From Balanoglossus misakiensis (lineage: Eukaryota; Animalia; Hemichordata), in NCBI GenBank assembly GCA_040954595.2, contig CM082596.2:8631124-8695123 (forward strand): a DNA stretch of 64,000 nt. Reading direction: 5' to 3'. The notes beneath the pieces are model-generated. The model saw only the letters and a list, made by a program, of their open reading frames with translations. It had not been told where the DNA came from and made no database searches. Position numbers and translations under genes: made by a program. Below are positions 1 to 51,252 of this stretch, piece by piece (the first letter of the stretch is position 1; each line of letters starts with the position of its first letter).

Positions 1-1695
1 GCAACTGAGGCTGAATTAGAAAACAAGTGTGAACTGAGTGGCTGCAATGGAGGCGGATTTGTCTGTGACATAGCGAATTCCATCTGAGGGAGAAGTGACG
101 TACGATTCGATGGCTGCAAGTGTGGCGGAATAGTGTGCACCTGTTCTAACATAGGTTGGCTCGCCCACTGTGGGTTGTGAAGACTGTGTAATGGTGTCTG
201 TTGTGCTGACAATCAAAGGTTGGTAACCATGGCTAGGGTAGTGTAGATTGCGCGTCCAGTGGATCCATCTGTGTGAAATCTAGCTGAATGCAGAGACGAT
301 GGTTTGGTAGGGGTCTCAACTGTGGAGCTCGCAATAGAGCGATCTGCAACTGCGGCGGAAAGTCAGTTGGGATGTAGGTGTCGGTGAGTCAGCCTGTGGG
401 TTGCTTTTTTGGTTTGTATGGACATTCACTTGGTGGGTGTGACAGTTGAAGGTCGCGGATACGCAAACAGAAACGACAGATGTGATGTTCCATTATCCCT
501 TCCTGGTTGTTGTGGTCATTGTTGAACTTACATTTTCCAAGCTGGTAGTCTGCACAGTATCTGGGGTTTGTCTTGTATTTGTAGCTGGTGTTGGCTCTCA
601 TAGGGGCTTTGGTCAACTTGATATGTAAACATCTGGCTTTCTCCTTGGTGAAATCATATTGCCATGTGTTTTCCCCAGTCTCGATAGAACGCAGGACTGC
701 ACAATGGAGCTCCCTGACATCGGCCCATTGGTAAATTTCTGCTAGGTGTAATAGTTCTATAAGGTGATCAGTTCTGGCAAGTCTGGTGGCAAGTGGCTCT
801 ACATGGTGGATGATGTATAGTTCTCCACGTACTAGTGCTGGCATTGACAATGTGGCATATGATTGGTCATCAATGCTGCTGTCGGACTTGTGGGCATATT
901 CGTGTGGCCATGGAACTTGGTAACGCACTTGCTCGCTGGATCTGCGAGCCACACCAGACTTGGGCTTTTTGCGATTGTGGAGTTTACGGAAGGTTTTGTA
1001 GTGCTGCTTACCTCCCTGCTCGAGCTGCGTGGCAGAGTCTGAGTCTGTACAGGATGACGAAGATGCTGAGGAATCTGTGTCAAACATCTTGGTATGGTGC
1101 GAGAGCAGCATTATGGCGAAGAGATGTAATGGTGGGCTTGTCCTGAGAATCCTCCATACCTGTAGGCGGTTTTGCCTTCAACTTTTCATTTCTCGCTAGT
1201 TCTCTCTTTAATTCTATTTCAATCTCCAGCTCTTCATTTTCCTTCTTAATCGCCTCTAGCATTTGCTTTTTAGGGCTGATAATGTCTCGATTACCTTCGC
1301 TGGTGTCCGGCTTAGACCATTCTGTCTTGATTGTGTCCTTTGTATTTTTCAAGTGGTCAGATGGTGTCACACTTGAAGTGCTGGCGTGCGTTTGAGGCGA
1401 CGATTTGTGGTCCATCTCGAAGGAGTTGTCCTTGTTTTCTCTACAGAGGTGTCCGGAAGGTCCTTTGTGGTGTTTCAAGTAGATAAGACAGGTTCTGCAA
1501 AGTCTTTGCGGCCTAGATGACATCGGATTGCAAATTGAGATTGCTCAGAAAATGTGACTGGTAACAAAATGGCGTTCTGCAAGGCATCATGGGAGATAAA
1601 GTCAAACCGCGGGAGCTGCCACTAGAGGGCTCTCCCTATCATAACAGCAATTAACCAAATTTTCAGCAAGAGACTTGCTATCAAATTTTACACAA
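1..1695 (-). mobile_element. 5' part of a YR (Ngaro/DIRS-like) retrotransposon inserted in an intron of the ankyrin exon array; continues beyond the left edge
   Basis: Contains the gag-like ORF. The array intron sequence (TTAATTCTAATCAACAAAC) resumes abruptly at ~1696. RT and YR are not in the window. Confidence 0.55.
389..1523 (-). pseudogene. Gag-like ORF of a Ngaro/DIRS-type tyrosine-recombinase retrotransposon, frameshifted near 1085
   Basis: ORFs 1080-1523 and 389-1111 join into one protein: coiled-coil, Ser-rich tract, KSG, PWPH...VRG...HL...YQW..VRE.H..VL..IE.G..TW, and a C-terminal CCCH/CCHC knuckle (YCADYQLGKC...H...HICRFC...H...C). This layout is typical of ORF1 of metazoan YR retroelements. 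Confidence 0.65.
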
Positions 1696-3186
1696 TTAAT
1701 TCTAATCAACAAACAAACATACATGTATGTGTTTGTTTGTTTGTTTAAGGAAACCTCACATTACATTTCAATTTTTGTGACATTGTTCTCATGCTCCTCC
1801 TTCATTACTTACAGAATGGAGACACACCTTTGCACTTTGCACCAAGGGATGGCGATGAAGGCCGTGTCAGATTGTTATTGGAACACAAAGCTGATGCTAA
1901 CATACAAAACAAGGTAAATACAAACCTGACTTCTATAGGTTAATTCTAATCAACAAACAAACAAACATGTGATTGTTTGTTTGTTTAAGGAAACCTCACA
2001 TTTATACATTTCAATTTTTGTGACATTGTTCTCATGCTCCTCCTTCATTACTTACAGGATGGAAGCACACCTTTGCACTTTGCAGCAGCAAGGTTTGGTG
2101 ATATCGGTAAAGGCTGTGTCAGATTGTTATTGGAACACAAAGCTGATGCTAACATACAAAACAAGGTAAATACAAACCTGATTTCTACAGGTTATTGCTA
2201 CTCAACATACCAACATTTGTTGGTTTGTTCTGTTTATTTATTTAAGGAGATCTCACATTACATTTCAATTTTTGTGACATTGTTCTCATGCTCCTCCTTC
2301 ATTACTTACAGAATGGAGACACACCTTTGCACTTTGTAGCAAGGGATGGCGATGAAGGCCGTGTCAGATTGTTATTGGAACACAAAGCTGATGCTAACAT
2401 ACAAAACAAGGTAAATACAAACCTGATTTCTACAGGTTATTGCTACTCAACATACCAACATTTGTTGGTTTGTTCTGTTTATTTATTTAAGGAGATCTCA
2501 CATTACATTTCAATTTTTGTGACATTGTTCTCATGCTCCTCCTTCATTACTTACAGAATGGAGACACACCTTTGCACTTTGTAGCAAGGTATTGCGATGA
2601 AGGCCGTGTCAGATTGTTATTGGAACACAAAGCTGATGCTAACATACAAAACAAGGTAAATACAAACCTGACTTCTACAGGTTATTGCTACTCAACATAC
2701 CAACATTTGTTGGTTTGTTCTGTTTATTTATTTAAGGAGATCTCACAGTACATTTCAATTTTTGTGACATTTTTCTCATGCTCCTCCTTCATTACTTACA
2801 GAATGGAGACACACCTTTGCACTTTGTAGCAAGGGATGGCGATGAAGGCCGTGTCAGATTGTTATTGGAACACAAAGCTGATGCTAACATACAAAACAAG
2901 GTAAATACAAACCTGACTTCTACAGGTTATTGCTACTCAACATACCAACATTTGTTGGTTTGTTCTGTTTATTTATTTAAGGAGATCTCACATTACATTT
3001 CAATTTTTGTGACTCGTACTGCCCATCTTCTCCCATGGTCAGGTCCATTGGTTTTTAATGGGCAATTTGATGCTGTTCTTAGAACAAATGAGGAGTTGCT
3101 TAAACAGAAGTTGGCTGTAGAACAGTTAGCAGTAGCACAAGCTCAGTCTTCTGTCTCTGGGTCAAAGTTCACCGGCAAACGGAAGT

Positions 3187-5344
3187 TTGCTAGGAAGAGA
3201 CCATTTAATAAGCAAAGGAAGGGTCAGCCCTTTCGTCAGCAGGCTAAGCCCCCCAAAGGGGCTAGCAGCCAGCACAAGTGACTACACAAGTCAGGACAAA
3301 GGGGTAATGGGGTCACAATCTGTGACTATGCCCCAGACACCATTGCCACAAGTAGCAGTTGGGGGTCGTCTGAAACATTTTGCCCAGGAATGGCAGAAAA
3401 TTACAGACGACCAAACAGTCCTCTCTTTAGTTTCGGAAGGGGTTCGTCTGTTCTTCAGGACGTTTCCACCCCTTTCGTTGTATCCTCCAAGTCATTTGGT
3501 ATCGCACCCTTCCCCTCCTATGTGGAGGGCCATACAGGGGCTGTTGGAAAAAGGGGCCATTCAAAAGGTCCCTTTACCAGTTCAGGATACGAAAAATCAC
3601 AGGGATGGAGACCTATTTTGGACCTGAGCGTGCTCAATCAGTACATTATAATCGAGTCTTTCCGTATGGAGCCACTCAAACTATTCGTCAGGCTCTCTCC
3701 ACGGGAGATTGGGCACTGACGATAGACTTGCAGGACGCTTATTTCCACATTCCTATCCATGCTCACTTCCAGAGGTACTTTCGCTTTGCGATAGGGAGCA
3801 AACTGTTCCAGTTTGTGGCTCTTCCGTTCGGTTTGGCCACTGCCCCGGCTATTTTTACACGGGTAGTAGGGGCGTTGATGGCTTTCCTTCATTCCCGAGC
3901 AGTACAAGCCAATCCATACCTGGACGACTGGTTGCTACACAATTCCAGTTTCCAGTTGACACTGGCAGACACACAAACCACACTACGGGAGACCGTTCGT
4001 GTGGGGTTCATTCCGAGCACAGACAAGTCTTGTCTAATCCCCTCACAGAGGATCCAGTTCATTGGCATGGTCATGGATCTGTCCAAGGGTTTAGTTTTCC
4101 CTACGGAGGAAAACCTGTTGAAATTAGAACAACAAGTGCATCGGATCAGTTCAGAGTCCATGGTCCAAGCACACACATTGCTCAGCATCCTGGGTCGCAT
4201 GAACTTTCTAGCCGAGGCAATACCTTTAGGCAGACTACATATGAGGCCAATTCAACTGTTTCTGTTGGCCCATTGGAGGCTGGTATCCGGTCAGTTGACG
4301 GACCTTTTTCAGGTCAAGCCACCTCTAGTTTCACACCTGCAATGGTGGCTAGACAGGGGGAATACTCTCGAGGGAAACCCCCTAGTATCCCCGTTGGCGA
4401 CGGTGTCACTGTTTGTGGACGCATCTCTCCAAGGATGGGGTGCACACTTGGGAGACAGGACAATCTCAGGGATATGGTCAGTCGACCAGTCAGTGCGGCA
4501 CATAAATTGGTTGGAAATGAAGGCAGTACAGTATGCACTTCTCCACTTTCACCAAGACATTTGCGGCAAGGTGATTCTGATCAGGTCAGACAACACCACA
4601 GTAGTCGCATTTATAAATCACCAGGGCGGCACCAGATCACCCAGCCTGTGTTATCTGGTATGGGACATGCTGAATTGGTGCCAGGCGAACAGCATCACGC
4701 TGAAAGCACTCCACGTTCAGGGCACAAGCAACATTCTGGCAGATGCTCTATCACGGGACAAGTTCTATCCACTAGAGTGCGCTCTACGGCAACCGCTAGT
4801 AGAGCAGATTTGTCTGATTTGGGACAGGCCCCACGTAGACCTATTTGCGACAGCTAGGAATCGCAAGTTCCCGATTTACGCGTCACTAAGGTCGGAACCA
4901 CAAGCACTAGCATGCGACGCTCTGTCAATCAGCTGGAAGGGAATGTTGGCATATGCATTTCCCCCACTACCGTTGATCTCCAGGGTAATTTCCAAGGTAG
5001 CACACGAAGAATGCGAAGTAATTCTAGTTGCACCACTGTGGCCAACACGTCCTTGGTTTCCAAGACTACTCCAGTTACTGGTGGACTGTCCACTGACATT
5101 ACCACACAATTGCATGGAGGAGACTGTTCGGCTGCCTCCGGTAGCACAACACCTTCACTTCCACGCTTGGAGACTATCAAGCTCAGTTTGCAGGCAAGAG
5201 GCTTTTCTGCAGAAGCTGCCTCGCGCATTGCACAACACCGACGAGCATCCACCACGGCAGCATATGATTCAAAGTGGTGTTCCTTTCGTCATTGGTGTGA
5301 GAAAAGGTCGATTGATTTTCTCAGACCCACGCCTCCTCAGCTAG
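3187..5344 (+). pseudogene. DIRS pol ORF: reverse transcriptase, RNase H, DNA N6-adenine methyltransferase-like domain; frameshifts at ~3585 and ~3672
   Basis: GGRL..F...W, WRPILDL, IDLQDAYFHIP, LPFGL..AP, YLDD. RNase H: VDAS..GWGA, HINWLE, SDNTT, N..ADALSR. MT-like: DLFA...N...DAL...W...YAFPP. Confidence 0.9.
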
Positions 5345-6237
5345 CAGATTTTTTCCTCTATTTGTTTAAGGAGAAAAAGACAGCAGTGAGCACTATTAAG
5401 GCGTACCGTTCAGCTATAGGTAACACACTTCGATTGTTGGGTGAGGAAGTTACTACCCTGGACGGCTCTATTTCTGCTTTGATTAGTAATTTCTCTTTGG
5501 CGCGACCAGTTGTCAAGTCACTGGTTCCCCAGTGGAGTTTATCTTTGGTTCTACATGCTTTATTAGGAGCTCCATTTGAACCTTTGCAAACAGCAGAGTT
5601 GAAGTTCTTGACGTACAAGACTGTTTTTCTTTTGGCATTAGCTACGGCAGGTCGCCGTAGTGAGCTTCATGCCCTGTCTATGGCTTCAGCTCATATTCGT
5701 TGGTCAGCAGACAGTGTCACTTTGCTTACTGACCCAGCTTTCTTGGCAAAGAATCGGATTGCGGATCTGCCACAATCGCCTCTGGTTATTCCGAAACTGA
5801 CGAAGTTAGTCGGTCAGCGTTCAGAGGATAGGTTGCTCTGTCCTATCAGAGCACTGAAGTATTATTTGCAGAGAACAAAAGACAGGAGGGGAGAGCAGAC
5901 AAGACTGTTTATCTCCATTAGGGTTACACCCAGTATGTCTATTTCACAGGCGACTATTTCCAGATGGATCGTCGAGACTATTAAGTTTGCTTATTCTAGC
6001 CCTTCAGAAGAAGCAATTAACTGGGCTAAGGTGTCAGCTCATGAAGTCAGAGCTCTTGCTGCTTCATGGTCACTTTTTTCAGGGACTTCCATGGCTGATT
6101 TATTGTCTGCAGTCCAGTGGAGATCACAAACTACTTTTTCCTCTGCTTATCTGCGAGATATGGCAGCGGAAGCAGATGGCTTATTTTCCTTGGGTCCTAT
6201 CTGTGTAGCTCAAAGGGTAGCTCACAGTAAGTATTAG
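4912..6237 (+). CDS. DIRS tyrosine recombinase
   Basis: SAM-like N-domain (STTAAYDSKW..F..WC) and catalytic R (GRRSEL), LCP.RAL, HEVR, W-S..TF...Y. Confidence 0.92.
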   Translation: MRRSVNQLEGNVGICISPTTVDLQGNFQGSTRRMRSNSSCTTVANTSLVSKTTPVTGGLSTDITTQLHGGDCSAASGSTTPSLPRLETIKLSLQARGFSAEAASRIAQHRRASTTAAYDSKWCSFRHWCEKRSIDFLRPTPPQLADFFLYLFKEKKTAVSTIKAYRSAIGNTLRLLGEEVTTLDGSISALISNFSLARPVVKSLVPQWSLSLVLHALLGAPFEPLQTAELKFLTYKTVFLLALATAGRRSELHALSMASAHIRWSADSVTLLTDPAFLAKNRIADLPQSPLVIPKLTKLVGQRSEDRLLCPIRALKYYLQRTKDRRGEQTRLFISIRVTPSMSISQATISRWIVETIKFAYSSPSEEAINWAKVSAHEVRALAASWSLFSGTSMADLLSAVQWRSQTTFSSAYLRDMAAEADGLFSLGPICVAQRVAHSKY

Positions 6238-6307
6238 CCTGGTTCTTTCTGTTGGAATTTTGTTTTTTCGGTTCAAGTCCCACCGCCAGTTGTTCCTTGG
6301 GACTCTG

Positions 6308-6407
6308 TAGGCTATAGGTTGGATCAAAGGTATGGTATTTATGCCATAGAAACAAAAAATTTTCTATTTTCGTTTCTGTTAGTAAATACTTACCTTTGAT
6401 CCAACCT
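6308..6407 (+). other. DIRS internal complementary region (ICR)
   Basis: The right half is a 58-bp perfect complement of the element's 3' end. The left half repeats TAGGCTATAGGTTGGATCAAAGGTA found at ~6636-6660. Confidence 0.88.
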
Positions 6408-7187
6408 GATACCCACCCGCCTCCCCACACTTGACCTGTGACTGTTTTTCCATTATTCATAAATTTTGGATGGGTCCTCAGTGCGTGGGCAGCATAGTTT
6501 CGGCCTGAGCAGTTATTTCTCGTGCTGAGCAATACTGAATATTCACGGCTGGACAGGTGGTATATGTACTCGGTGAGTATGACGTAATCAGGGGAAAGTT
6601 TTTTATCTCAGCGGTCGTTAGAGGGCGAGATATATTAGGCTATAGGTTGGATCAAAGGTAAGTATTTACTAACAGAAACGAAAATAGAAAATTTTTTGTT
6701 TGTTTGTTCTGTTTATTTATTTAAGGAGATCTCACAGTACATTTCAATTTTTGTGACATTTTTCTCATGCTCTTCCTTCATTACTTACAGAATGGAGACA
6801 CACCTTTGCACTTTGTAGCAAGGGATGGCGATGAAGGCCGTGTCAGATTGTTATTGGAACACAAAGCTGATGCTAACATTCATAACAAGGTAAATACAAA
6901 CCTGACTTCTATAGGTTAATTCTAATCAACAAACAAACATGTATTTGGTTGTTTGTTTGTTTAAGGAAACCTCACAGTACATTTCAATTTTTGTGACATT
7001 GTTCTCATGCTCCTCCTTCATTACTTACAGGATGGAGACACACCTTTGCACTTTGCAGCAGCAAGGTCTGGTGATGAAGGCCGTGTCAGATTGTTATTGG
7101 AACACAAAGCTGATGCTAACATACAAAACAAGGTAAATACAAACATGACTTCTATAGGTTAATTCTAATCAACAAACAAACATGTAT

Positions 7188-7256
7188 TTGTTTGTTTGTT
7201 TGTTTGTTTGTTTGTTTGTTTGTTTGTTTGTTTGTTTGTTTGTTTGTTTGTTTGTT
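7188..7256. repeat. (GTTT)n microsatellite expanded in an array intron
   Basis: Direct reading. Confidence 0.95.
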
Positions 7257-9084
7257 TTTAGGAAGTACATTTCAATTTTTGTGACATTGTTCTCATGCTC
7301 CTCCTTCATTACTTACAGAATGGAGACACACCTTTGCACGTTGCAGCAGCGTTTGGTGATGAAGGCCGTGTCAGATTGTTATTGGAACACAAAGTTGATG
7401 TTAACATACAAAACAAGGTAAATACAAACCTGATTTCTACAGGTTATTGCTACTCAACATACAAACATTTGTTTGTTTGTTCTGTTTATTTATTTAAGGA
7501 GATCTCACATTACATTTCAATTTTTGTGACATTGTTCTCATGCTCCTCCTTCATTACTTACAGAATGGAGACACACCTTTGCACTTTGTAGCAAGGTATT
7601 GCGATGAAGGCCGTGTCAGATTGTTATTGGAACACAAAGCTGATGCTAACATACAAAACAAGGTAAATACAAACCTGACTTCTATAGGTTAATTCTAATC
7701 AACAAACAAACAAACATGTATGTGTTTGTTTGTTTGTTTAAGGAAACCTCACATTTATACATTTCAATTTTTGTGACATTGTTCTCATGCTCCTCCTTCA
7801 TTACTTACAGAATGGAGACACACCTTTGCACTTTGCAGCAGCAAGGTTTGGTGGTATCGGTAAAGGCTGTGTCAGATTGTTATTGGAACACAAAGTTGAT
7901 GTTAACATACAAAACAAGGTAAATACAAACCTGACTTCTACAGGTTATTGCTACTCAACATACCAACATTTGTTTGTTTGTTCTGTTTATTTATTTAAGG
8001 AGATCTCACAGTACATTTCAATTTTTGTGACATTTTTCTCATGCTCCTCCTTCATTACTTACAGAATGGAGACACACCTTTGCACTTTGTAGCAAGGGAT
8101 GGCGATGAAGGCCGTGTCAGATTGTTATTGGAACACAAAGCTGATGCTAACATACAAAACAAGGTAAATAAAAACCTGACTTCTATAGGTTAATTCTAAT
8201 CAACAAACAAACATGTATTTGTTTGTTTGTTTGTTTAAGGAAGTACATTTCAATTTTTGTGACATTGTTCTCATGCTCCTCCTTCATTACTTACAGAATG
8301 GAGACACACCTTTGCACGTTGCAGCAGCGTTTGGTGATGAAGGCCGTGTCAGATTGTTATTGGAACACAAAGCTGATGCTAACATACAAAACAAGGTAAA
8401 TACAAACCTGATTTCTACAGGTTATTGCTACTCAACATACAAACATTTGTTTGTTTGTTCTGTTTATTTATTTAAGGAGATCTCACAGTACATTTCAATT
8501 TTTGTGACATTGTTCTCATGCTCCTCCTTCATTACTTACAGAATGGAGACACACCTTTGCACTTTGCAGCAGCAAGGTTTGGTGGTATCGGTAAAGGCTG
8601 TGTCAGATTGTTATTGGAACACAAAGCTGATGCTAACATACAAAACAAGGTAAATACAAACCTGATTTCTACAGGTTATTGCTACTCAACATACCAACAT
8701 TTGTTGGTTTGTTCTGTTTATTTATTTAAGGAGATCTCACATTACATTTCAATTTTTGTGACAATGTTCTCATGCTCCTCCTTCATTACTTACAGAATGG
8801 AGACACACCTTTGCACTTTGTAGCAAGGGATGGCGATGAAGGCCGTGTCAGATTGTTATTGGAACACAAAGCTGATGTTAACATACAAAACAAGGTAAAT
8901 GCAAACCTGACTTCTACAGGTTAATTCTAATCAACATACAAACATTTGTTTGTTTGTAAAAGGAAACCTCAAATTACATGTTAATTTCTGTGACATGATT
9001 ATCATTCTCCTTCTTCATTACTTACAGAAAGGCAATGCAAGATCAATTCCAAAGATGTTAAAACGTTTGATTTTTCTACATTAT

Positions 9085-9835
9085 ATTTAAGCAATAAAAC
9101 ACCCCTAGCCATGGTATACCACGAGATTTTGACCAGTTCACGACATATACGCACGAGCGATAGCGATTATATTATGCCAGTATATTGAAACTTTGCATAA
9201 AACATTTTAAAAAGGCATTTTCTTTGACTATGATATATGACTGTGGTATATGACAAATATATCACAGTCACGTGTCGTGTCCCGACCAATAAAATAGCGT
9301 GATTTACACCATCAATATACTGGTATAATATAATTAAATAATAACACATGATAGCAAGGGCAATGTTACCCGAGCATCATGTGTTATTAATTTTATTACG
9401 CCGAACATTTGAACGTACATACACTGTAGAATAGAAGAACGTAGGGTTGCGTCCATGTCTTACGTTGCTGAGAATGTAAAATGTCTCGATCTCCCAAGAA
9501 CTATACCTATTTCGAACTCGGATAATTTTGAGCATACTGCGCTGTTGGTTGCGATTTTGGTGTATTTACTGTTCATTTGCGGTAAAATATCGTCCAGTTG
9601 AACAGGTATTAAGCCTATGTGTCGCTTTGAAGCCATATAGATGCGGGAGTTGACTGATCGTGAAGGAAGCCATTGAACGACAGTTTGGAACGCGCAGAAG
9701 TCGCGCGCAGAACACCAAAACAACCCAGTGGGCGATATCAACATAGGGCTTTTTTTTCTCTATATGTAACGTGAGCGCATCTCAGCCAATCACGAATACG
9801 ACATAATACATGAGGTGTAATAAACCACAATACCA
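9085..9835. mobile_element. Cluster of short non-autonomous elements with inverted ends, Crypton-like
   Basis: Inverted pairs TATATTATGCCAGTATATTGA / TCAATATACTGGTATAATATA, TAATAACACATGAT / ATCATGTGTTATTA and TTATTACGCC / GGTGTAATAA. No TSDs seen. The family assignment is by resemblance only. Confidence 0.35.
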
Positions 9836-9865
9836 CAATATTTGGAAAACATCATCAACCAAGCA

Positions 9866-11302
9866 TTTTTAGGTCCCATTGGTATGTACCATGGGACCTT
9901 ATGGGATGGGTTGCGTCTGTATGTATGGATGCATGTATGTATGGATGGATGTATGTCTGTATGTCCGTCCACATCAAAAACTTGAAAACCGCAGCACGTA
10001 TGACCTCGATATTTGGTGTGTAGATGCAGGCAGGGCTGTAGATGGGAGTTTGTTCAAATGAAGGTGTCATTGCCAAAAATATGCAAATTAGCTGGGAAAA
10101 TGTGAAATTGGTCAAAACTCGACATCCACTGGTCATATTGATTTGAAAATTGGTATGCATGTACCTTATGTCAACCTCAAACAGTCCTGTATGTTTTGAG
10201 CTAATATTATCGATTTCCTATTTTTTATGCATTTTTTTTGTATTTTTCCATGTTATTGGTGAAAAGTCTTCATTTCTGAAAGTGATGGGCTTACTTCTTT
10301 GAAATTTAGTATGAAGCTTCCTTATAGTTGTCTGAGTAACCATAGTTTTGTTCAAATTGTTGCAAAATTTGCATATTATAATTTTGAGCAATATTTGCCA
10401 TTTTGGTCAAAACATTTTTTTCTTTAAAACCGCATGCCAGATTGCTTTGAAATTTGGTAGGCATGTTCGTAGGGGTAACCTAAGTAATATGTTGTAAAAA
10501 AATGTGATATTTTCATAAATGTGTTTTGCAATTTTTGTCAAAAAATGTTTTCTCTGAAACAGCTTGTCATATTGCATTGAACTTTGGCAGGCATGTTCCT
10601 TGTTGTGATTGAAGTAAGATATTGTACAATTTTGGTGATATTTTTCATATTTGTGTTTTTGCCACTTTTGAACAAATATTTTCTGTGAAAGTGCTTGTTG
10701 GATTGCTTTGAAATTTGTTTTTTTCTCTGATTGCTCTGAAATTTAGGATATAATTTCATAACACATACATGTATATGTGCAACTTTTATTCAATTCTGAC
10801 ATCAGAAATATTCAATATTTAGCAAGTTTTTTTGTAAGTTTCTTTGTTTTTGGTTAGCAAATCTTCTCCTAAACCATTTGTCCCGTTGTTTTTAAAGTTA
10901 CTATTTCCAAGGAGTTGTTACCCCGAACTAAGACATGTTTACATAACTTTAATAGGCCAGCTGTTACAGAGACCACAAGCTATTAAATTTTTAATTACCA
11001 GTGGCAGGTCAGTGTGTGTGTCTGTCTGTGTGTCTGTTCCAGGGCTGACTGAGAGAAGTTGCTTGTCATGTGTGTTTGTACAGACAATTGTTGGTCAATT
11101 TTTTTTTCTAGCACCACTTGTAAGACTGCCATGACACATGACTGTTTATTGGGCATGTTCTTTGATAATTTTTGTACATTCCAGATTTCTATATGGTTAG
11201 ATCATATCTGCTTGCAATGTCACCTGTAATTTTTATTCTGGTGTGTCACTGTTTCCGCACAATCCTCAAATGGGACCACAGTGTCCTTGACGCTATTTTT
11301 CT
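9866..11302 (-). mobile_element. HINE/DINE-1-like non-autonomous element, second family
   Basis: Reverse complement of 49553-50985 and 60197-61626. Terminal hairpin AGGTCCCATTGGTA..TACCATGGGACCT next to a (CATA/CAGA)n microsatellite. Confidence 0.75.
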
Positions 11303-12149: not shown

Positions 12150-12393
12150 TATAGTGGTTCAAGGTGTTCTACCGGTAAACAGTGAATGACATCAGTATCC
12201 TCAAATTTTTTACCAACAATTGTACAATTGTTTGTTTGTTGATTTATTGATTGATTGATTGATTTCAAAGAAGACCAGGGGGCACAATTAAGTCCCATTT
12301 GCAGGCTCCATATATATTCCTAGGGGTATTAATTGTGTTCCCTTACTGACTTGTTTCTGTACACATAAATGGCAGCTTTTGTTTCTTGCACAG

Positions 12394-12504
12394 GATGGCA
12401 ACACAGCACTCCACATGGCAGCAATGGGTCATCACTCTTGGCAACAAAATTTTGTTGTGAAACTGTTGCTGCACTATGGAGCTGATATTGACTGCAAAAA
12501 TAAG
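12394..12504 (+). CDS. Divergent ankyrin-repeat exon (DGNTALHMAAMGHHSWQQNFVVKLLLHYGADIDCKNK)
   Basis: TTTCTTGCACAG acceptor, AAG|GTAC donor, 111 bp, phase 0, ankyrin consensus. Confidence 0.85.
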
Positions 12505-13038
12505 GTACAATCTTCTATTGCAATATTTTATTGCATGATGCTCTACACCATGTGTTCTGATCAACTCCCAATATTTCTTCACAATATTGAAATTTGAAGT
12601 GATGGGTATGGGTAAGTTTATTTGTAGAATTTTATCAAAACTATTCTTACAAAAAACACATAGTTAATTATGAGTTTTTTCCAATATATTCAGCATGTAG
12701 ATTCCTGTAGATCCATTGCACTTTTTGGTATTCTAATACTAAGACTGTGAGGTTATTACGAAAAATACCACAAAGTATGCATGAGAACATTAGTGCCAGT
12801 CGTATCGCCAGACGTGTACTATACATCTTACATCTCCATTAGTTTTTGCATTTCATATTACTTGGCTTTCATGTGATGTGGTCATTCTTTGTATGAACAA
12901 TTTGAAATTAAAATTGAGTTCAAAATTTTGCTGGAATTTAATGAGTTACCATTTGTTACAGTATTTAATAAATATCTTATCAATATCAACATTATACATG
13001 TAACTGATAGTTACGTTTTTTATCCCAATAAAACTTAG

Positions 13039-13107
13039 ATCGGAAAGACACCACTTGATGTCGCTGCAAGTAGGTCTGTTAAGGATGTGCTGTTGGATAA
13101 CATTAGG
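13039..13107 (+). CDS. C-terminal ankyrin capping exon (IGKTPLDVAASRSVKDVLLDNIR)
   Basis: AAACTTAG acceptor, AGG|GTGAGT donor, 69 bp, phase 0, GxTPLDxA motif. Confidence 0.8.
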
Positions 13108-14577
13108 GTGAGTAAAATTTTTCTTAAATTTGAATAATATATGACCTGCAATGTGCAAATTCTAATGTATCCTGAATTAAGAGTGTCTGTAAATATCAAT
13201 GTAATAATTTGCTACTTAATTCATGTATTTTAATTATTTCTTTATTCAACAAGAAACGAGATGAGTTCAGTGACCTGATGAAGGAATCAGGTATTTGGTG
13301 AAGGTGTAAACAGCAAACTTCTCATCGACCTTCTGGAGGATTTTGAGCTTCTCTGTCATGCACATGGCCTCACAAAGACTGGAGAGAAACTTTTCTTCAT
13401 ACCAGGACTTCAAGATGATGATATGCCTGAAGGCCATTGGGAGAAGAGCGAAGTGAAGACAATTGATTTTGGGAGACGATTCGAATGCCAATTAGATGAA
13501 ACAGATTCCTTTACGGCAGGCTTTTTCCCAAAATTACAGACCCGTCTATATAAGCGTTTCACCAACCTTGGCCAACCACCCAGTGGCTTATGGAGAAGTA
13601 TCACAGTGTGCCATGATGTTGAAGGTCTTGTCTTTATGACCAATGGCAGAAGGGCAGTCAATGTCTGCGTACGAGTTGAAGACAAGAAGTTGATTGGTGA
13701 GGGCCATGAGCTTCTTGAGATGGTTTCCAAAGACATACAGGATGTCTTCTCAATTGCCTGTCCAGGCAACAGGATGATCGAATCAGCTTATCCTGAGTGC
13801 AGACTCTCTTGCAAACCACGACATGGAACAAGTTTGGTTTTACACTCTTGATGACGTGCTACACGCAGAAGACATTGGAAAGAAAGTGTACAACAAAGAA
13901 GTCGGTGAACCAAAAGATATTTGTGACCTGCTTTGTCAAGGTCATGACACAACGATCTTACTGAAGAAGTGGAAACGCTGTGATATCAAATGGATGCTTG
14001 AAGATACCAGACACAAAGTGACCATGAGAATGGACATTGAGCGTGGAGACCCTTCTTTGCACTATGCCAGCATAGCCGAATGGATGGGCATAAAATACAC
14101 GGATGTGCGGACATTTGAAGAACAAGCTCGTCGCACTGGCCGACCAGTTACAGAGTACCTCTTCAAAGAGTGGTGTCGCAGATGGGCTGAGAGGAAACAA
14201 CATCAAAGTGGAAAATACACTGGCAGGTGCCAGAGCCATCTCACCTAACATAGATGCCACCAAAGGTCGTTCAGCAAAAATGTCACACTCATCAACATCA
14301 TCCCCACCAACAAGATTCTGATGAAGAAGTGAATGCTCAGAAAACAAGACAGAAGTATCCACATTTAAAGGGACCAGGCTCTTCGAAAGCAACTTTGAGA
14401 ATCTGTTGGCAATTTTCAAGACCATGGGAAGAGACGACATGGTAACGTTGATTGAAGAGATGTTCGAAGAAATTGTGAAAACACAAACGAAATGAACAGA
14501 TAACATGTGTAAATTCCACCCAGTATTAACCAAAACAGTGTGTGTTAAATTGTCATAAAAATGTCAGGTGCCTTTGA

Positions 14578-14583
14578 AATAAA
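14578..14583 (+). promoter_or_regulatory. Candidate polyadenylation signal of the Roco-like gene
   Basis: AATAAA ~80 bp after the TGA at 14493-14495. Confidence 0.35.
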
Positions 14584-15655
14584 TGATCTGGAAACATTAT
14601 AACCATGTACCCCTATGTCAGTTCAGACCAGTGTAGACACCTAAATGGTGGTCCAGAATTGAAAAAGAAACTTTAGACCTCAAATCTTTCGTTTCGAAAT
14701 AGTAATATTATAGTCTAAAAATGCAAACAGTGTCATACAACAGTGAAAAGGTTGACACAGTGTATTTTTTGCCGTTTGTGAATCTGATGACCAGGAGGTG
14801 GTCTTTGAGCAATGTGTATTCAACCTACAAACTATAGTTAAAAGAGTGCATTTCTCATGTCTTAAATACAATGTACGGTAGATGTCGAATAAAAAGGTAA
14901 TCCGAGACTAGTATTTCTGCAATGGCATTTTCAAATACCACACGTACAGTATATAGAGTGATAAGTGTGTGTGATTCTCAATGTACATGTATCTATTAAT
15001 TGCCAATGCAGCCCAACAAAATATCTATAACCAATCATGAATGTACATTAGAGTTTGGTTCATTTTTGTTTGTGTGATAGATTTAAACTTCTGTCTCATG
15101 GAGAGACGCAAATAACCATTTTTGAAGTGTGTTTTATTGTAAGTTTTTTAATGCTCCGTAAAGTTTGTATCTTCTTTACATGTTATATAAAGAGGCCACT
15201 AATTCTTAATCCCTATGAGTATTTTAAAGCCTCAGTATTTCTCGTAGGGGCAAAATTTTGTTTGAAACGGCATCTATAATTTCTAAAAGTAGATGATAAT
15301 TGATTCTGAATCGAACAGTCATCATCCCCAGCTCTGCTCATAAACTCATACAATTTACAATATAACGAGTGAAGAATGACTTTCTGTCCTTACAGAAAGT
15401 CAGGCTCTGTTGACACACGTGACTACTGCGCATGCGCACTCAAATGTGAATCTATGCGGAAGAGGTTTGGTCGCCCCAAATCAAGTGACTCAGCGAAGAA
15501 ATGCGCACTAATTCGGCGAAATTTTGGGAAGATAACTTTATGGGAGAAATCAGTCGATGGAACCAGATCAAATCCGAAAATGGTCTGACCATCAAATGTC
15601 AAAGTGGCACGTTTGCTGATCGACATGTGCAACATGTCCGTTGTAAATTATTGAC

Positions 15656-16740
15656 AGATGTCTATCAAGTTTGCGAAGAGGAATGTGATTGGTCGAAGAT
15701 TATGGCGGCCATATTGGATTTTGTGAAAAACGATTAAAAAGTAAAAATTCCCTTTCTAGCCTAAAAATTGATAGCACAGAAATTCTTTTTACGGATATGA
15801 ATCATCATATGCCAAGAATAAGCTATAAATATTTTGGTAATTTTGGCAATGACCATTGACCTACTTTTGACGCATGATTTTTCTGCATATCTAATTCCAG
15901 GCTAACCAATAGGGCTATAAGTTTGGTTTTTGATGTATGTGGATTTGTATGTGATCCAAAAATTTTGCTACTTTTCATGACCCCTTTGACCTCTACTGAC
16001 CTCATTAAATATGCACATACCTAATTACAGATGAACCAATAGACCTAGAGGTTTTGTTTTTGTTATACATGGACCAGTATGGGGTCAAAATATTTTGCCC
16101 AAATGTTGGGTGACCTCGGGTGACCTTTGACCTACTTTTGCATATCTCGACATCCACAGCAGATACAGCCTTGGCGTTTGGAGGTATGGGGCCATAATGA
16201 AAAGCCAAAGTTTGGGGTCACCTGTGACACCTGCTTAACTCATTAATTATGTGCATACCTAATTCTAGGCTAACCAAAAGGGCTAGAGATCTGGTTTTTG
16301 TTGGACATGGACCACTATGGGTCAAAATTTTCTGCCCAAATTTTGGATGACCTCAGATGACCTTTGACTACTTTTGCATATCTCGGCATCCAAAGCAGGT
16401 ACAGCCTTGGCATTTGGAGGTATGGGGCCATAATGAAAAGCCAAAGTTTTGGGTCACCTGTGACACCTGCTTTACGCATCCAGGCTAACCAAAAGGGCTA
16501 GAGGTCTGGTTTTTGTTGGACATGGACCACTATGGGTCAAAATTTTCTGCCCAAATGTTGGGTGACCTCTGGGTGACCTTTGACCTACTTAACACTTTAA
16601 CAGCACGAAACATAGATATAACCTTGATATTTCATGGGATAAAACAGCATTATGTTTCTACTCATTAATTATGTGCATATCTAATAATCAGATCAGATAA
16701 TAGAGCTTGGGCCCGGACAATGCTGCTTGCAGCTTTAATT
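15656..16740 (-). mobile_element. Inverted, 3'-truncated HINE-like element closely related to the innermost nested copy (30752-32710)
   Basis: Reverse complement of TTAAAGCTGCAAGCAGCATTGTCCGGGCCCAAGC at ~16705-16740, with the same ~238-bp internal repeats. Confidence 0.85.
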
Positions 16741-17730
16741 CATTTTTTTATTATTAATAATAATAATAATTAATATTTCCCAATTTTAACACAAAATAGA
16801 TCACAATAACAATAATACTATTTTTCATAATAATAATAATAATTATTATTATTATTAATATTTTTTGCCATTTTTATTCATAATAATAATAATAAAACTA
16901 TGTTTTTATTCATTTTACCACAACTATGAGCCTGAGTTCCCTGTGATCAAAACATCACAGCATATACGTGTACAGTGAGTATTTGTTATTATGCAAAGTT
17001 TGAATTCAAGTCCGGAGTAGAATTCATTTGTCAACAATATCAGTGGTGGTTACACACGTGCATTACCTTCTTTTTGTCTATATGCAATGGTAATGAGGGT
17101 GACTATTTTTAGGGTCGTCTTTGTTCTACATTAGCGAGCATTCGCTGGTCTATCGTGGCCCCTACACGACAATTTTAATTTATTATTTTGAAAGTTAAAC
17201 TTTAATTTTAGATAGACCATATCTTTTCCCAAGAAGTAAACTTTAATTTTGGTGGCGGCAACTAATTTTGATGGACAAAACTTTTTGATTTTGACAGTAA
17301 AACTTTAATTTTACTTATCACAAATTTTATTTTTCGAAAGCAAATTTTATTTTTTCCAAGAATAATATTTTAATAAAGATTTATTTTGTCTAAAATAAAC
17401 AGTAACAACTTGAGATAAACTTATTCATACTACATGGATTTTTTTTTTCAAAAAAGTATGTTTTAATTTTTAAAGAAAAAGTTTATTTTCTAAAATAACA
17501 AATTATTTTTCCCAGGTGAAAATATTTTACGGAGTTAAATTTTTATTTACATTTAAATAACCTTTAAACACTCGAGATAAAATTATCTGTACTCGATGGA
17601 ATTATTTAACTTTTTAAAACAAAACATTTTTATTGCTTAAGAAAAAAAAATATTTACTAAAGTAACAAATTATTTTTCCCGGGTGAAAATTTTATTTTAC
17701 AGGGATAAATTTAATCTGATTTCTAGTAAC
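16741..17730. repeat. AT-rich low-complexity region with (TAA)n tracts and degenerate internal duplications
   Basis: (TAA)n at 16750-16900, repeated AAACTTTAATTTT, and a duplicated AACAAATTATTTTTCCC.GGTGAAAAT. Confidence 0.6.
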
Positions 17731-18951
17731 ACAACTTATATGGGGGCGCTCTTTCTAATGCTACTGACAAACTTTTGTTATGAGGGCGCAATTCAGGTTT
17801 CGGCGTGCGAATTTCTTTTACATGCTTGACAAAATATATTTTCAGAACAGACTGAGAAAGCAAAATATTTTTTTCTTCGCGGCGGAAATGAAGCTATCCC
17901 ACAATTCCCGTACATGAGGACGTTACAGGAGTACATAAATCCAACAAACAGATGAGATGGCTATCTATCCACAGTGCAATATTTACAGATTGTATCTACT
18001 ACGGCCCGGGCAGACAAATCCGGACAATTTCGCCGACGTATCGTAGACCTTTGAATGACGCTGTCGATCAAATCGAATACAAGATCTAGGGGAGTCGGTC
18101 CGTGGGAGAAATCGGCCAGGTGCGAACTTGGCTCGTAGGATCGTTTAAATTAAAGTCCTTTAAATTATGTTTCGTGTATGCGTCACATTTTACGTGTACA
18201 GTAAACCACAGTGCTAGTGCTGCTCTGTCCCTGTCCCTTGGCAGTTTGTGGAGTGACCGTGGTACAGTCGCCGCCGTTTAATCAGGACACCATGGGCGCA
18301 GACAAAACATCCCCATTAACCGGCTGTTCCATTTAGGGTAAAATGGTCGATCCCACCCACACATGTTCACCTAGTCTTGCTCCAAGACTGTGTGATACTG
18401 AAAAAGAAATGCGCGTCCGCGTTGCGTCCTGTGGACGCGACGCTAATCTGGCGGCGCGTCGTACGAAAGTTCCATTCCTTATCGACAGGCACAGCGACTG
18501 CCATAGAGTCTAATGTTCACCTTACACGCTATTGTTTACTTGGACATCGACGGCAAACAATTTCCATATGATGATTGACTTTCGCGCTGATTATCGTACC
18601 CACGGCGGCCGACTGACCACGCTGAGTATATATAGCCGCTCTAGAAAACATGACCTCAGACAGATCCCTCGGGACCATGCCTCGAATTCAACGATCACGT
18701 AGATGGACGCGCTGCCGCGTATGAGGTCACCGGGGAGCTTTCCAAAGTGGTCACCCGAAATTGGAAGGGCCAGCCGGTTAATCGAAACATAATTTAAATT
18801 CCTTTCAACCAACAACAACTGGACACAGAGTGTAATGCCCACGGTTGCACGAGCACACGTGTGTACGAACAAATTAGACTTCCGGCTAAAGACGATTGGA
18901 GTCGGCTTCGGATTCAGCTTTGGTTTCGGGTTCGAGTGAACCACTGGTAAC

Positions 18952-19080
18952 CACAGGTAGCTGTGATATTTCTATGTCGGAGAATTATAGTGAGGTCATT
19001 AGTTATCCCGTGCTCGTTCTGCGGGATAACTAATGACCTCACTATAATTCTCTGACATAGAAATATCACGGCTACCTGTG
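18952..19080. mobile_element. 129-bp hairpin MITE with 8-bp TSD (hAT or P-like)
   Basis: 59-bp arms with 2 mismatches, CACAGG...CCTGTG termini, TSD CTGGTAAC at 18944-18951 and 19081-19088. Confidence 0.9.
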
Positions 19081-19144
19081 CTGGTAACTGTGGTAACTGA
19101 TGGAAAACTACAGCGTAATTGTGAAGAGCGTCACCAAAGGTTAA

Positions 19145-22100
19145 AATATAGCTGCAAGCAGCGATGACGGGCACAAGCTTAAGCCGAAGGTCAAAGGTCA
19201 TATGTGGTCACCCAAAATTTGGGCAAAAAGTTTTGACCCCCATACTAGTCCAGGTCCAACAGAAACCTGACCTCTAGCCCTATTGGTTTGTCTGAAATTA
19301 GATATGCACATAATTAATGATGTAAAGTGTAAGACTCCATTAATAGTTCGATCCATCCAAACACAAATGCTGTACCTGTTCTGGATGCCAAGATATAGCA
19401 AAGTAGGTCAAAGGTCACCTAAGGTCACCCAAAATTTGGGCAAAATTTTTGACCCCATACTGATCCATGTCCCACAAGAACAAAACCTCTAGCCCTATTG
19501 GTTAGCCTGGAATTAGGTATGCGCATAATTAATGAGATATGCAGGTGTCACTGGTGACCCCAAATTTTGGCTTTTCAATTTTAGTCCCAACCCTCCAAAC
19601 GCCAAGTCTTTGCCTGCTCTGGTTGCCAAGATATGGTAAATTAGGTCAAAGGTCACCTGAGGTCATGCAAAATTTGGGCAAGAAATTTTGAGCCTATACT
19701 GGTCGATGTTCAACAAAAATCAAACCTCTAACCCTATTGGTTAGCCTGTAATTAGGTATGCACATAATTAATGAGATAAGCAGGTGTCACAGGTGACCCC
19801 CAAATTTGGCTTTTCAATTATAGTCCCAACCCTCCAAACGCCAAGTTTGTACCTGCTATTGATGCGGAGATATAGGAAAGTAGGTCAAAGGTCACCTGAG
19901 GTCACCCAGAATTTGGGCAAATTTTTTTAACCCCATACTGGTCCAAGACCAAAAAGAACGAAACCTCTAGCCCTATTAGTTAGCCCGGAATTAGGTATGC
20001 ACATAATTAATGAGTTTAGCAGGTGTTACAGGTGAGCCCGAAATTTTGCCTTTTAATGTGGTCCCATTCTGCTCATGGGCCAGTAGGCAGTCTCTGTACA
20101 GGACCATTGCACAGACGTGTACATGGCGTCATAGCTTAACTATAGAAAGTATAGGCCCGTGGCTGGGTCCAAAAATATGAAAAACTACTAATATTTACAA
20201 GTCTTCTTCTCAAAATAGACTTGGCCCACGGCCTTGATATTTGGCATGTAGGACACTGATCACATGGTCCACAAAAGTTGCTAAAAGAATTTCGATATCT
20301 CCATTCATATGCAAATTAGGCCCATTTGAAAACTTTGCCCATATATGGTCATCAAGCCACATGACTATATAAACATTCACAGGGATACTGCACCAGCTCT
20401 CATAGGCCTGCACCATTGTGCCAAGTTTGAGATTTGTAGGTTCAGCCGTTTTCAAGATCTACCTGAGCAAAAAAACTACACAAGAAAAAAAAAAAGATGA
20501 ATATAGCTGCAAGCAGCGATGACGGGCCCAAGCTTAAGCCAAAGGTCAAAGGTCATAAGCGGTCACCCGAAATTTGGGCAAGAAATTTTGACCCCATACT
20601 GGTCCGTGTCTCACAAGAACAAAATCTCTAGCCCTATTGGTTCGCCTACAATTAGGTATGCGCATAATTAATGAGATAAAGTGTAAGGCTCCATCAGGAG
20701 TTCCATCCCTCCAAATGCCAAGGCTGTATCTGCTGTGGATGCCGAGATATGGTAAAGTAGGTCAAAGGTCACCTGAGGTCACCCAAATTTTGGGCAAAAA
20801 ATGTTGACCCCATACTGGTCCATGTTCAGCATAAATCAAACCTCTAGCCCTATTGGTTAGCCTGGAATTAGGTATGCACATAATTAATGAGATAAGCAGG
20901 TGTCACAGGTGACCCCAATTTTGGCTTTTCAATTTTAGTCCCAACCCTCCAAACGCCAAGTCTGTACCTGCTCTGGTTGCGGAGATATAGGAAAGTAGGT
21001 CAAAGGTCACCTGAGGTCACCCAACATTTGGGCAATGTTTTTTAACCCCATACTGCTCCATGTCCCACAAGCACGAAACCTCTAACCCTACTGGTTAGCC
21101 TGGAATTAGGTATGCACATAATTAATGAGATATGCAGGTGTCACAGGTGACCCCTATTTTGGCTTTTCAACTTTAGTCCCAACCCTCCAAACGCCAAGTC
21201 TGTACCTGCTGTGGATGCCGAGATATAGGTAAGTAGGTCAAAGGTCACCTGAGGTCACCCAAAATTTGGGCAGAAAATTTTGACCCATAGTGGTCCATGT
21301 CCAACAAAAACCAGACCTCTAGCCCTTTTGGTTAGCCCAGAATTAGGTATGCACATAATTAATGAGTTAAGCAGGTGTTACAGGTGAGCCTAAAATTGTG
21401 CCTTTTATTTTGGTGCCATTGTGCTCACTGACCAATAGACAGTCACTGTACAGGACTATTGCACAGACCAGAATTCCACAATAAGACATAGACATAGCTT
21501 AACCATAGAGGTATAATTAAAGGTATAAATTTAATAAAAAAATTAATATAAAAAAATCGGTCGATTTTTCATATTATTTTTTTTGCTTAAAATTATTGAC
21601 AAATGCAAGGCTAGCTGCACACCAAAGTTGGAGATGATCGGCCTAACAGATTTTGAGATATGTATGCATATTTATCCAAAATACGATGTGGTCATAGCTT
21701 TACTATGTAAAGTATAGGCCGATGGCTTGGGCGAAAAAATATGAAAAATAATACTTAAAAATCTTCTTCTCAAAATTGACATGGCCTATGGCCTTGACAT
21801 TGGGCATGTAGAACCCTGGCCATATGGCCCACAAAGTATCTTAACAGAATTTTGATATCTCCATTCATATGCAAATTAGGCCGATTTGAAAACTTTGCCC
21901 ATATATGGTCATCAGGTCACGTGACTTATTAAACATTCACAAGGGTACTGCACTAGCTCTCATTGGCCTGCACCATTGTGCCAACTTTGAAATTGGTAGG
22001 TTTAGCCGTTTTCCAGATCTAGCTGGCCGAAAAAACTACACAAGAAAAAAAAGAAGTAGAAGAAATATAGCTGCAAGCAGCAATAGCGGGCCCAAGCCAA

Positions 22101-23454
22101 CATAGCACATAGCAACATAGCAATAAGCATATCTGCACTTGATACCAAGATATGGTAAAGTAGGTCAAAGGTCAACTGAGGTCATGTTATATTTAGGCAA
22201 GACATTTTTACCCTATACTGGTCCACGTTCAACAAAAACCAAACCTATAGCACTATTGGTTAGCCTGGAATTAGGTATGCACATAATTAATGAGGGAGGC
22301 AGGTGTCACAGGTGACCCCCAATTTTGGCTGTTCAATTTTAGTCCAACCCTCCAAACCCCAAGACTGTACCTGCTCTGGATGTCAAGATCTGGTAAAGTA
22401 GGTCAAAGGTCACCTGAGGTCATGCAAAATTTGGGCAAGAAATTTTGACCCTATACTGGTCCATGTTAAGCAAAAACTAAACCTATAGCCCTATTGGTTA
22501 GCCTGGAATTAGGTATGCACATAATTAATAAGGTAGGCAGGTGTCACAGGTGACCCCCAATTTTGGCTTTTCAATTTTAGTCCCAACCCTCCAAACACCA
22601 AGTCTGTACTTGCTCCGGATGCCAAGATCTGGTAAAGTAGGTCAAAGGTCACCTGAGGTCATGCAAAATTTTGGCAAGAAATGTTGACCCTATACTGGTC
22701 CATATCCAACAAGAACGAAACCTCTAGCCCTCTTAGTTAGCCCAGAATTAGGTATGCACATAATTAATGAGTTAAGCAGGTGTTACAGGTGAGCCCAAAA
22801 TTTTGCCTGTTATTTTGGTCCCATTGTGCTCACTGCCCAATACACAGTCACTGTACAGGACCGTTGCACAGACCAGAATTCCACACCAAGACGTGTAGTG
22901 TTCATAGCTTAACTATAGAGGTATAAGTAAAAAGGTATAAATTTAATTTAAAAAATTAATATAAAAAAATCGGTCGATTTTTCATATTATTTTTTTCGCT
23001 TAAAATGATTGACAAATGCTAGGCTAGCTGCACACCAAAGTTTGAGATGATCAGCCTAACAGATTTTGAGATATGTATGCATATTTATCCAAAATAATAT
23101 GTGGTCATAGCTTTACTATGTAAAGTATAGGCCGATGGCTTGGGCGAAAAATATGAAAAATAATACTTAAAAATCTTCTCCTCAAAATTGACATGGCCTA
23201 TGGCCTTGACATTTGGCATGTAGAACCCTGGCCATATGGTCCATAAAGTATCTGAACAGAATTTTGATATCTCAATTCATATGCAAATTAGGGCGATTTG
23301 AAAATTTTGCCCATATATGGTCATCAGGTCACGTGACTAATTAAACATTCACGAGGGTACTGCACCAGCTCTCATTGGCCTGCACCATTGTGCTAAGTTT
23401 GAAATTGGTAGGTTCAGCCGTTCTCCAGATCTAGCTGGACAAAAAAACGACAAG

Positions 23455-23486
<32 letters not shown>

Positions 23487-30721: not shown

Positions 30722-30754
<33 letters not shown>

Positions 30755-38869: not shown

Positions 38870-39082
38870 CTGTTGGATGATAACAAAACAGCTACTTAAA
38901 TACAGGCTTCAAGCACACTTAATAAGTAACATTACTACTGATTACCAATCACATCGTCTCAGGGTGTCAGGAGACAGATTCCCTCTTCTGAACCCTCCCC
39001 CCCCCCCACACACACACCCTTTAACGTTGCCGGCTAATGGCTGATGCCCATCTTGAGATAGGTTATACTGAAGATAACTTAA

Positions 39083-50985: not shown

Positions 50986-51252
50986 AAATCAATAGCTGTT
51001 ACCTCGATTTTGTAATCATTAATATAAGTATCAATTGAATACCTCTACATACACACATATCTGACAAATCCACAATTTGGTCCAATTTCTCTCTTTAAAA
51101 AAAGTATTTTATTCGAGAATTCAGACAGAAAATAAAATATTTCCATATCTTATGACATGCATTGATCAACACATCTTGAAACATGAATATCCCTCCACGG
51201 CCATCAAAAATATATTTCAAATTCTCTCCATAAATATGCATTATAGGCTTAA

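Follow-up and report, generated by a model that had tools for sequence, protein, structure and literature searches.

How does a gene come to carry fourteen nearly interchangeable ankyrin exons in a row, and what kind of protein did they belong to? The question is raised by a 64,000-nucleotide (nt) stretch of the hemichordate Balanoglossus misakiensis (contig CM082596.2; hereafter, the window), in which an initial annotation recognized an array of one-repeat ankyrin exons and proposed that it diversifies the recognition domain of a Roco-death-domain protein. We consider it moderately probable that the array is a set of ankyrin cassettes mixed by crossover, heading a broken copy of a multi-copy ankyrin-Roc-COR-death sensor family. 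The copy in the window is best read as a relic of a sensor family whose repeat arrays likely evolve by unequal crossover.

The array comprises 14 exons of 99, 102 or 108 nt between positions 1815 and 8894. As first annotated, each exon encodes one repeat and all 14 are in phase 0. None contains a stop or a frameshift, and the three exons that we scanned all score as Pfam Ank. The splice sites are uniform, with one acceptor and one donor (AAG/GTAAAT, exon/intron) in 14 of 14 exons, and exon and intron together form a unit with a period of ~245 bp. The exon core motif occurs 14 times on the plus strand of the window and never on the minus strand. The 14 exons have 11 distinct DNA sequences, and the ten others aligned to exon 1 are 79–94% identical to it (mean ~87%). 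Every peptide variant previously listed after the TPLH motif is present, namely RDGDEGR (six exons), RYCDEGR (two), VAAAFGDEGR (two), AAARSGDEGR (one) and AAARFG[D/G]IGKGC (three). The exact array repeat was not found in any protein among the best 120 of 4950 matches of an exon-alignment protein search, which was crowded by generic ankyrins.

The introns had been described as being of two types and as homogeneous as the exons. Two types are indeed present, 5 introns being of type A and 7 of type B among the 12 complete internal introns. The homogeneity holds within type B (mean p-distance 2.0%) and not overall (8.3%, compared with 5.4% for exons), the distance being 6.6% within type A and 12.7% between types; the last intron of the right array is more diverged than the other array introns. 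A hairpin of the (AAAC)n...(GTTT)n type is predicted in all five array introns that we folded (z −2.0 to −2.8), for example at 1949–1985. Several type B introns carry a paired C/G change that preserves the hairpin stem, and intron 7 has a microsatellite expansion of 52 nt.

The units are recombination mosaics. With each gap column counted singly, 30 columns are informative and give 435 pairs, of which 107 fail the four-gamete test; this requires three or more exchange points inside a unit. Exon and intron types recombine freely, in agreement with the earlier observation that exon variants recur in irregular order with two intron types. Furthermore, units on either side of the retroelement that splits the array share identical tracts of 210 and 195 nt. 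The mosaic structure makes unequal crossover or gene conversion the likely engine, which strengthens the earlier proposal that unequal crossover is the source of the variation; that the exchanges took place in the germline is what we infer. In addition, exon indels are multiples of three in 3 of 3 cases, as annotated, compared with 1 of 7 intron indels (Fisher p = 0.033). Of all the observations, this keeping of the frame most strongly suggests that the gene was still working when the variants arose, although the exon contains a GCA run and the intron a 4-nt microsatellite, both of which weaken the argument.

The COR sequence downstream of the array identifies the family. Among 251 candidates, the COR piece of the window matches a single one, a Ptychodera flava 'DAPK1-like' protein whose cluster includes XP_070550841.1 (P0004). 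P0004, the nearest intact relative, is a kinase-less P. flava protein in which Roc GTPase and COR stand in tandem between ankyrin repeats and a death-like tail. In a 25-row tree of the COR-B half, the window sequence groups with P0004 with support 99/99, at 57% identity, a placement that makes an acorn worm the likely source, though P. flava itself need not be that species. We searched P0004 against 1.84 billion representatives and looked up 20 of the relatives returned, of which 18 are deuterostome (three from Ptychodera, two from Glandiceps, five from Saccoglossus, five from lancelets including a hybrid, and three from echinoderms), one is an abalone ankyrin protein and one has no name. The tails of some relatives are caspase, CARD or GT4 domains. 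Pfam finds no kinase domain in any of the 14 relatives scanned, on which ground we rejected the label of DAPK1 orthologue for them; in the window gene, the 5′ end, where an N-terminal kinase would be encoded, is out of view.

The domain folds of the family are seen in a structure model of a relative (predicted local distance difference test score 81). Its COR region matches 3dpt_B (E = 9e-11; by VIA-align, Z = 16.5, root-mean-square deviation (rmsd) 4.1, 287 aligned), and the window retains the COR-B half of this fold. For model residues 355–507, the matches are death-fold chains, namely 1d2z_A (94 aligned, with Z = 11.7 and rmsd 2.6), 3mop_K (Z = 11.4, rmsd 1.8) and more than ten others, with whole domains covered and with Z below the caution level of 13 for helical bundles. 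The relative thus ends in a death fold, and the corresponding domain of the window is split by a frameshift; a family profile matches the Pfam-called death domains of P0159 and P0151 as well as both window frames. Domain scans of the relatives, the folds and the contigs described below agree with the proposed architecture, ankyrin-Roc-COR-death in multiple copies. The kinase-less 'DAPK1-like' proteins of acorn worms, lancelets and echinoderms (for example, XP_070550841.1 and XP_070546714.1) have domain order, repeat frame, linker and COR-death sequence in common with the window. The database models examined contain 0–19 repeats, mostly less than 85% alike, whereas the window copy has lost Roc and its array is far more homogeneous. 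Among the relatives, P0273, an ankyrin-Roco protein of Glandiceps, has two alternating repeat types in duplicated pairs, forming a higher-order repeat. The abalone protein P0131 (XP_048241358.1) has an apparent caspase and NTPase region, judged by eye, and 28 near-identical ankyrin repeats, whose variation peaks at two positions after an LAA motif, like that of the window array.

The window gene is a broken copy of this family, a point on which the initial annotation was silent, and is unable to encode a Roco signalling protein (Table 1). Roc and most of COR-A, ~330 codons corresponding to P0004 residues ~151–479, are deleted, the linker jumping to the end of COR-A at 13290/13291, so that the Roc-COR tandem is absent. 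The remaining COR-death exon, whose three pieces are 57%, 43% and 67% identical to P0004, carries two frameshifts. The Roco-death signalling protein earlier assigned to this locus is therefore not encoded here. Likewise, the range 1696–9040 had been taken as a single array, and 3.68 kb of it is a DIRS-type retroelement. The element contains a reverse transcriptase (RVT_1, E = 7.7e-16), whose frame start is spread over three frames, and weak integrase matches (E = 2.4e-4 to 0.016, below Pfam cut-offs); its left end is gone, and its right end has an inverted pair of 63 nt (6345–6407/6644–6706). DIRS elements combine reverse transcriptase-RNase H, a tyrosine recombinase and a terminal repeat with an internal complementary region, and this layout is found here, the recombinase matches being weak. 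Since the junctions of the element lie at differing intron positions, some array units were probably lost along with its left end. On the left, unrelated DNA adjoins the array at 1695, so the gene start is not visible, its 5′ part lying outside the window or being lost. This insert contains minus-strand open reading frames (389–1177 and 1080–1544), which are gag-like candidates on the basis of a Cys/His motif. On the right, the rest of a 15th exon was not found downstream in the window.

Table 1. Coordinates of the ankyrin locus and of the DNA inserted into it
Feature	Position	Strand	Remarks
Unrelated inserted DNA	1..1695	-	Junction 1695/1696, cuts intron before first visible exon; no significant Pfam match
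Left array, ankyrin exons 1–5 and introns	1696..3013	+	Exons 1815–1913, 2058–2165, 2312–2410, 2557–2655, 2802–2900
DIRS-type tyrosine-recombinase retroelement	3014..6697	+	Within array intron 5; splits array 5+9
Right array, ankyrin exons 6–14 and introns	6698..9027	+	Last intron more diverged
Right array exons 6–10	6791–6889, 7031–7132, 7319–7417, 7564–7662, 7811–7918	+	
Right array exons 11–14	8065–8163, 8297–8395, 8542–8649, 8796–8894	+	
15th-exon stub	9028..9090	+	Acceptor intact, ~4 ankyrin-like codons, then unrelated sequence; stop after 20 codons
Divergent ankyrin exon, 37 amino acids, phase 0	12394..12504	+	Pfam Ank E = 4e-10; matches P0004 76–114; splice sites
Capping-repeat exon, 23 amino acids, phase 0	13039..13107	+	By eye like last ankyrin segment of P0004
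Roc-linker start fused to COR-A end	13254..13301	+	Junction 13290/13291; stop 13299–13301
COR-B and death-domain remnant, three frames	13291..14495	+	4-nt insertion near 13776, second shift near 14220

The family is multi-copy, and some copies retain Roc, in the organism sampled by two public DNA runs (X1 and X2, one sample, organism A), in which sequence depth is not equivalent to copy number. Contigs matching 12200–14700 number 285 and 216 in the two runs, counts partly inflated by an intronic repeat near 12800, and 160 and 120 of them, respectively, are less than 95% alike. Three contigs per run have loose ends before 13291, where hand translation continues COR-A in frame, and in two contigs a Roc-like start follows the linker. 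Most of the depth in organism A (717/856; 4995/5990) lacks the 4-nt insertion at 13776, as does organism B; we rejected an assembly artefact as its origin, because a 133-nt contig spans it without a gap. One low-depth X1 contig lies over the deletion junction with one differing base, its left side of 29–30 letters being slightly below the bridge threshold. A search of public runs with the right array listed five runs, none of them RNA, a result that carries no information on expression; a fifth or more of the array words are present only in short contigs of one sample.

Variation among the exons is concentrated in helix 1 and the following turn. We count 18 exon substitutions (16 non-synonymous and 2 synonymous) and 3 indels, of which 11 substitutions (10 non-synonymous and 1 synonymous) and all 3 indels fall in this patch. 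The claim that almost all variation follows TPLH thus stands for 10 of the 16 amino-acid-changing substitutions and for every indel; the other 6 contradict its confinement to the binding face, as do several changes at buried framework positions. One 30-nt window contains 14 of the 21 events (scan p = 0.013–0.016 by count and 0.0009 when frequency-weighted), and diversity is 12.8% in the patch and 2.1% elsewhere in the exons. In the window array, the variability of the patch exceeds that of the remaining positions by a factor of 6.2; the corresponding factor is 2.0 in an intact P. flava paralogue and 1.3 in 565 generic repeats. In the intact paralogue, read in the same repeat frame, the same columns are the most variable (0.71 versus 0.35, 16 repeats), and the column variabilities of paralogue and window are correlated (rank correlation 0.44, p = 0.01). 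Of the six positions taken as those randomized in designed ankyrin repeat proteins (DARPins), mapped onto the array repeat, 5 of 6 vary, compared with 9 of 27 others (p = 0.037). The annotated statement that helix-1 and loop positions are randomized in DARPins agrees, as regards randomization of the surface, with the available text of PMC8683736, which gives no position numbers.

A number of observations weigh against reading the array as sensor cassettes shaped by crossover and selection. Substitutions taken without indels do not cluster significantly (scan p = 0.26–0.39), and the p-values are optimistic because the events are linked. Ordinary ankyrins, too, vary most at the DARPin positions (0.89 versus 0.56, 565 repeats). 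Part of the patch can be explained by mutation bias, since a GCA run contains one of the indels and two of the substitutions are at CpG; the introns carry a variable patch of their own at the microsatellite hairpin, and recurrent mutation could imitate part of the mosaic signal. The patch also takes in framework positions (Ala to Val, Ala to Pro and Gly to Cys), Val stands in seven array repeats at a position that is Ala in 90%, and 11 of 14 repeats have Arg at a helix-2 position that is normally hydrophobic, compared with 0 of 565 and 5 of 1174 elsewhere. Framework changes of this kind suggest that constraint is relaxed or that the repeats fold poorly.

Selection on the variable patch may have acted in working members, although the proposed diversifying selection does not reach significance. 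When dN/dS (the ratio of non-synonymous to synonymous rates) was computed across the exons, it exceeded 1, and the 16 non-synonymous to 2 synonymous changes represent no significant excess (p = 0.06–0.19). The ratio is 3.4–4.2 in the patch, where 10 changes are non-synonymous and 1 is synonymous (p = 0.12–0.19), and 1.6–2.5 outside, with one synonymous change each and neither value significant. Since even the value outside the patch exceeds 1, there is likewise no support for purifying selection on the framework. Nor is array homogeneity a general trait of the family in annotated proteins, since, of 30 Roc-motif proteins that a crude motif filter selected among 147 matches, a single one has ankyrin repeats at least 85% alike; automatic annotation and 50% clustering would tend to conceal homogeneous arrays. 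Finally, homogenized exon-intron arrays also occur in non-immune genes (PMC9779670). Spider MaSp2 silk genes (with tenascin-X and SOWgp as cited there) have iterated near-identical introns, sometimes of two types, like the window. Such introns are thought to promote crossover in silk genes, so homogenized introns alone are no sign of immunity. MaSp2 is a structural protein with no signalling module, and its two intron types alternate regularly, whereas those of the window do so irregularly.

In the mechanism that we propose, tandem duplication of one exon-intron unit would build an array at the sensor end of a family member, and unequal crossing-over together with gene conversion would mix the units and keep them alike, introns included. 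Since all exons are in phase 0 and the ~245-bp units are near-identical, misaligned crossover would add, remove or swap whole or half repeats with the frame kept. In working members, this would change how many repeats there are, their order, and which residues occupy the last part of helix 1 and the turn, thereby altering the ligand-binding surface. The ankyrin stack of such a putative cytoplasmic sensor would be coupled to predicted signalling through a Roc-COR GTP switch and the death domain; a sensor or immune role is suggested by this architecture and by analogy with known systems. A bolder idea, which we hold to be doubtful, is that the ankyrin-Roc-COR-death sensors of acorn worms form an expanded family that acts as a natural DARPin library, with binding surfaces assembled from exchangeable one-repeat exon cassettes. 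Unequal crossover would make these surfaces differ from one individual to the next, exon skipping might make them differ from one transcript to the next, and truncated ankyrin-only copies, such as the one in the window, would serve as decoys or donors.

A rival account makes the array a neutral minisatellite, in which a 245-bp unit was expanded and homogenized like any other tandem repeat while the gene was dying or already dead; the patch would then stem from GCA slippage, from CpG decay and from a small number (two or three) of old linked haplotypes. In its favour, the locus has at least five breaks, dN/dS gives no significant signal anywhere, framework-damaging residues are common among the copies, and the introns are homogenized too, with a hot patch of their own. 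We nevertheless regard this account as rather unlikely: 14 of 14 exons have escaped stops, frameshifts and splice-site loss, whereas the 3′ exon has two frameshifts, the frame is kept in all three exon indels, and the patch matches the variable columns of the intact paralogue. The argument from intact exons is only moderate, because homogenization shrinks the effective target.

Two further explanations would leave the exons in use. In one, which strikes us as quite improbable, the locus is a living ankyrin-only gene, the stop three codons past the deletion junction yielding a capped ankyrin stack. Such a stack would still bind ligand but not signal, and so would serve intact paralogues as an inhibitor or a decoy, while the COR-death remnant would decay within the 3′ untranslated region. 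Frame and splice sites are kept in all 16 ankyrin-coding exons and the linker exon, the frame-breaking lesions all lie downstream of that stop, and the X1 contig mentioned above spans the junction. Against this, the intact acceptor at 9028 leads to a stop after 20 codons, so that the stub would have to be skipped; moreover, there are insertions within the array, no start exon is present in the window, and the core-position Arg recurs in 11 of 14 repeats. In the other, one gene would make many isoforms by skipping ankyrin exons, aided by pairing of palindromic intron halves that loops exons out. The exons are all in phase 0 with identical splice sites, the predicted fold of introns 9–11 joins intron 9 to intron 11 by ~40 pairs, brown-algal Roco genes are reported to have splice variants (PMC11378527), and of two NCBI isoform models of the lancelet-hybrid gene LOC144872558, an ankyrin-Roco relative, P0284 lacks exactly three repeats of 33 amino acids that P0283 has. 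However, the lancelet model was made automatically and comes from a hybrid between species, and in four acorn-worm genes with isoform pairs, the differences lie outside the repeats in 4 of 4 cases. In addition, long-range pairing is expected of any tandem palindrome, local hairpins (z −2.0 to −2.8) should form first, and strong identical splice sites favour inclusion, all of which makes this repertoire by splicing very unlikely.

The reading that we favour, cassettes mixed by crossover in a broken member of a sensor family, has its closest parallels in brown algae and fungi. The initial comparison with brown-algal Roco genes, in which shuffled arrays have one leucine-rich repeat (LRR) per exon, agrees with PMC3341825, and the window array has the same layout of one repeat per exon in a common phase. 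The brown-algal LRR-ROCO genes (PMC3341825, PMC11378527) have a Roc-COR core, one repeat per same-phase exon, reshuffled repeat order and multiple copies with many broken members, as here; at least half of the Roco loci of Ectocarpus are disrupted (PMC3341825), and the window locus is disrupted likewise. They use LRRs and phase 2, whereas the window family uses ankyrin repeats, phase 0 and a C-terminal death domain. The window introns are also homogenized with the exons, which points to tandem unequal crossover and differs from the brown-algal case, and the spare inverted exons found in brown-algal introns have no minus-strand counterpart in the window. Positive selection and splice variants are reported for the brown-algal genes.

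Fungal NOD-like receptors (NLRs) with highly conserved ankyrins, such as Podospora Pa_3_8560 (PMC4986451), have near-identical repeats that vary in the inner helix and loop, as here, and the array repeats likewise are more than 85% alike along a stretch of 100 amino acids or more. Concerted evolution has been proposed as their diversifying engine (PMC4986451). The fungal proteins carry a NACHT or NB-ARC ATPase, whereas the window family carries Roc-COR; repeat-number polymorphism and positive selection were measured in them, and a one-repeat-per-exon layout is not described in the available text of PMC4986451. Among animals, the Roco genes of Trichoplax number at least 17, and the domains partnered with them include death, CARD and TPR (PMC4104024).

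Repeat-cassette diversification of candidate immune sensors is thus already described for brown algae (LRR-Roco) and fungi (ankyrin, TPR and WD NLRs). The array would add, plausibly for the family, an ankyrin, intron-homogenized, animal version of it; the window copy is a relic, so its own importance is limited. A literature search aimed at ankyrin and Roco families in invertebrates, which covered few subscription journals, found no such array or acorn-worm family, and the family is not described in the available main texts of PMC1266365, PMC9334734, PMC11463336 and PMC8195603. If our reading is correct, an ankyrin-cassette Roco family would extend the strategy to a deuterostome, among the close invertebrate relatives of chordates, and many misnamed 'DAPK1-like' database proteins would gain a testable job.

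The rest of the window is rich in repeats. A 1.45-kb interspersed repeat is present in three copies ~91% alike (9865–11302, 49551–50989 and 60195–61630), the first of which lies within the long intron that follows the array. At 16001–32325, tandem repeats of 238 bp and 155 bp form nested families within larger repeated blocks of ~1.4 kb. A Ty3/gypsy retroelement at 43069–47869 has gag, protease-like, reverse transcriptase, RNase H and integrase frames. On the minus strand, three closely related C2H2 zinc-finger arrays (37368–38891, 54883–55818 and 62992–63999) form a tandem cluster, each with 9–16 fingers at a period of 84 bp.

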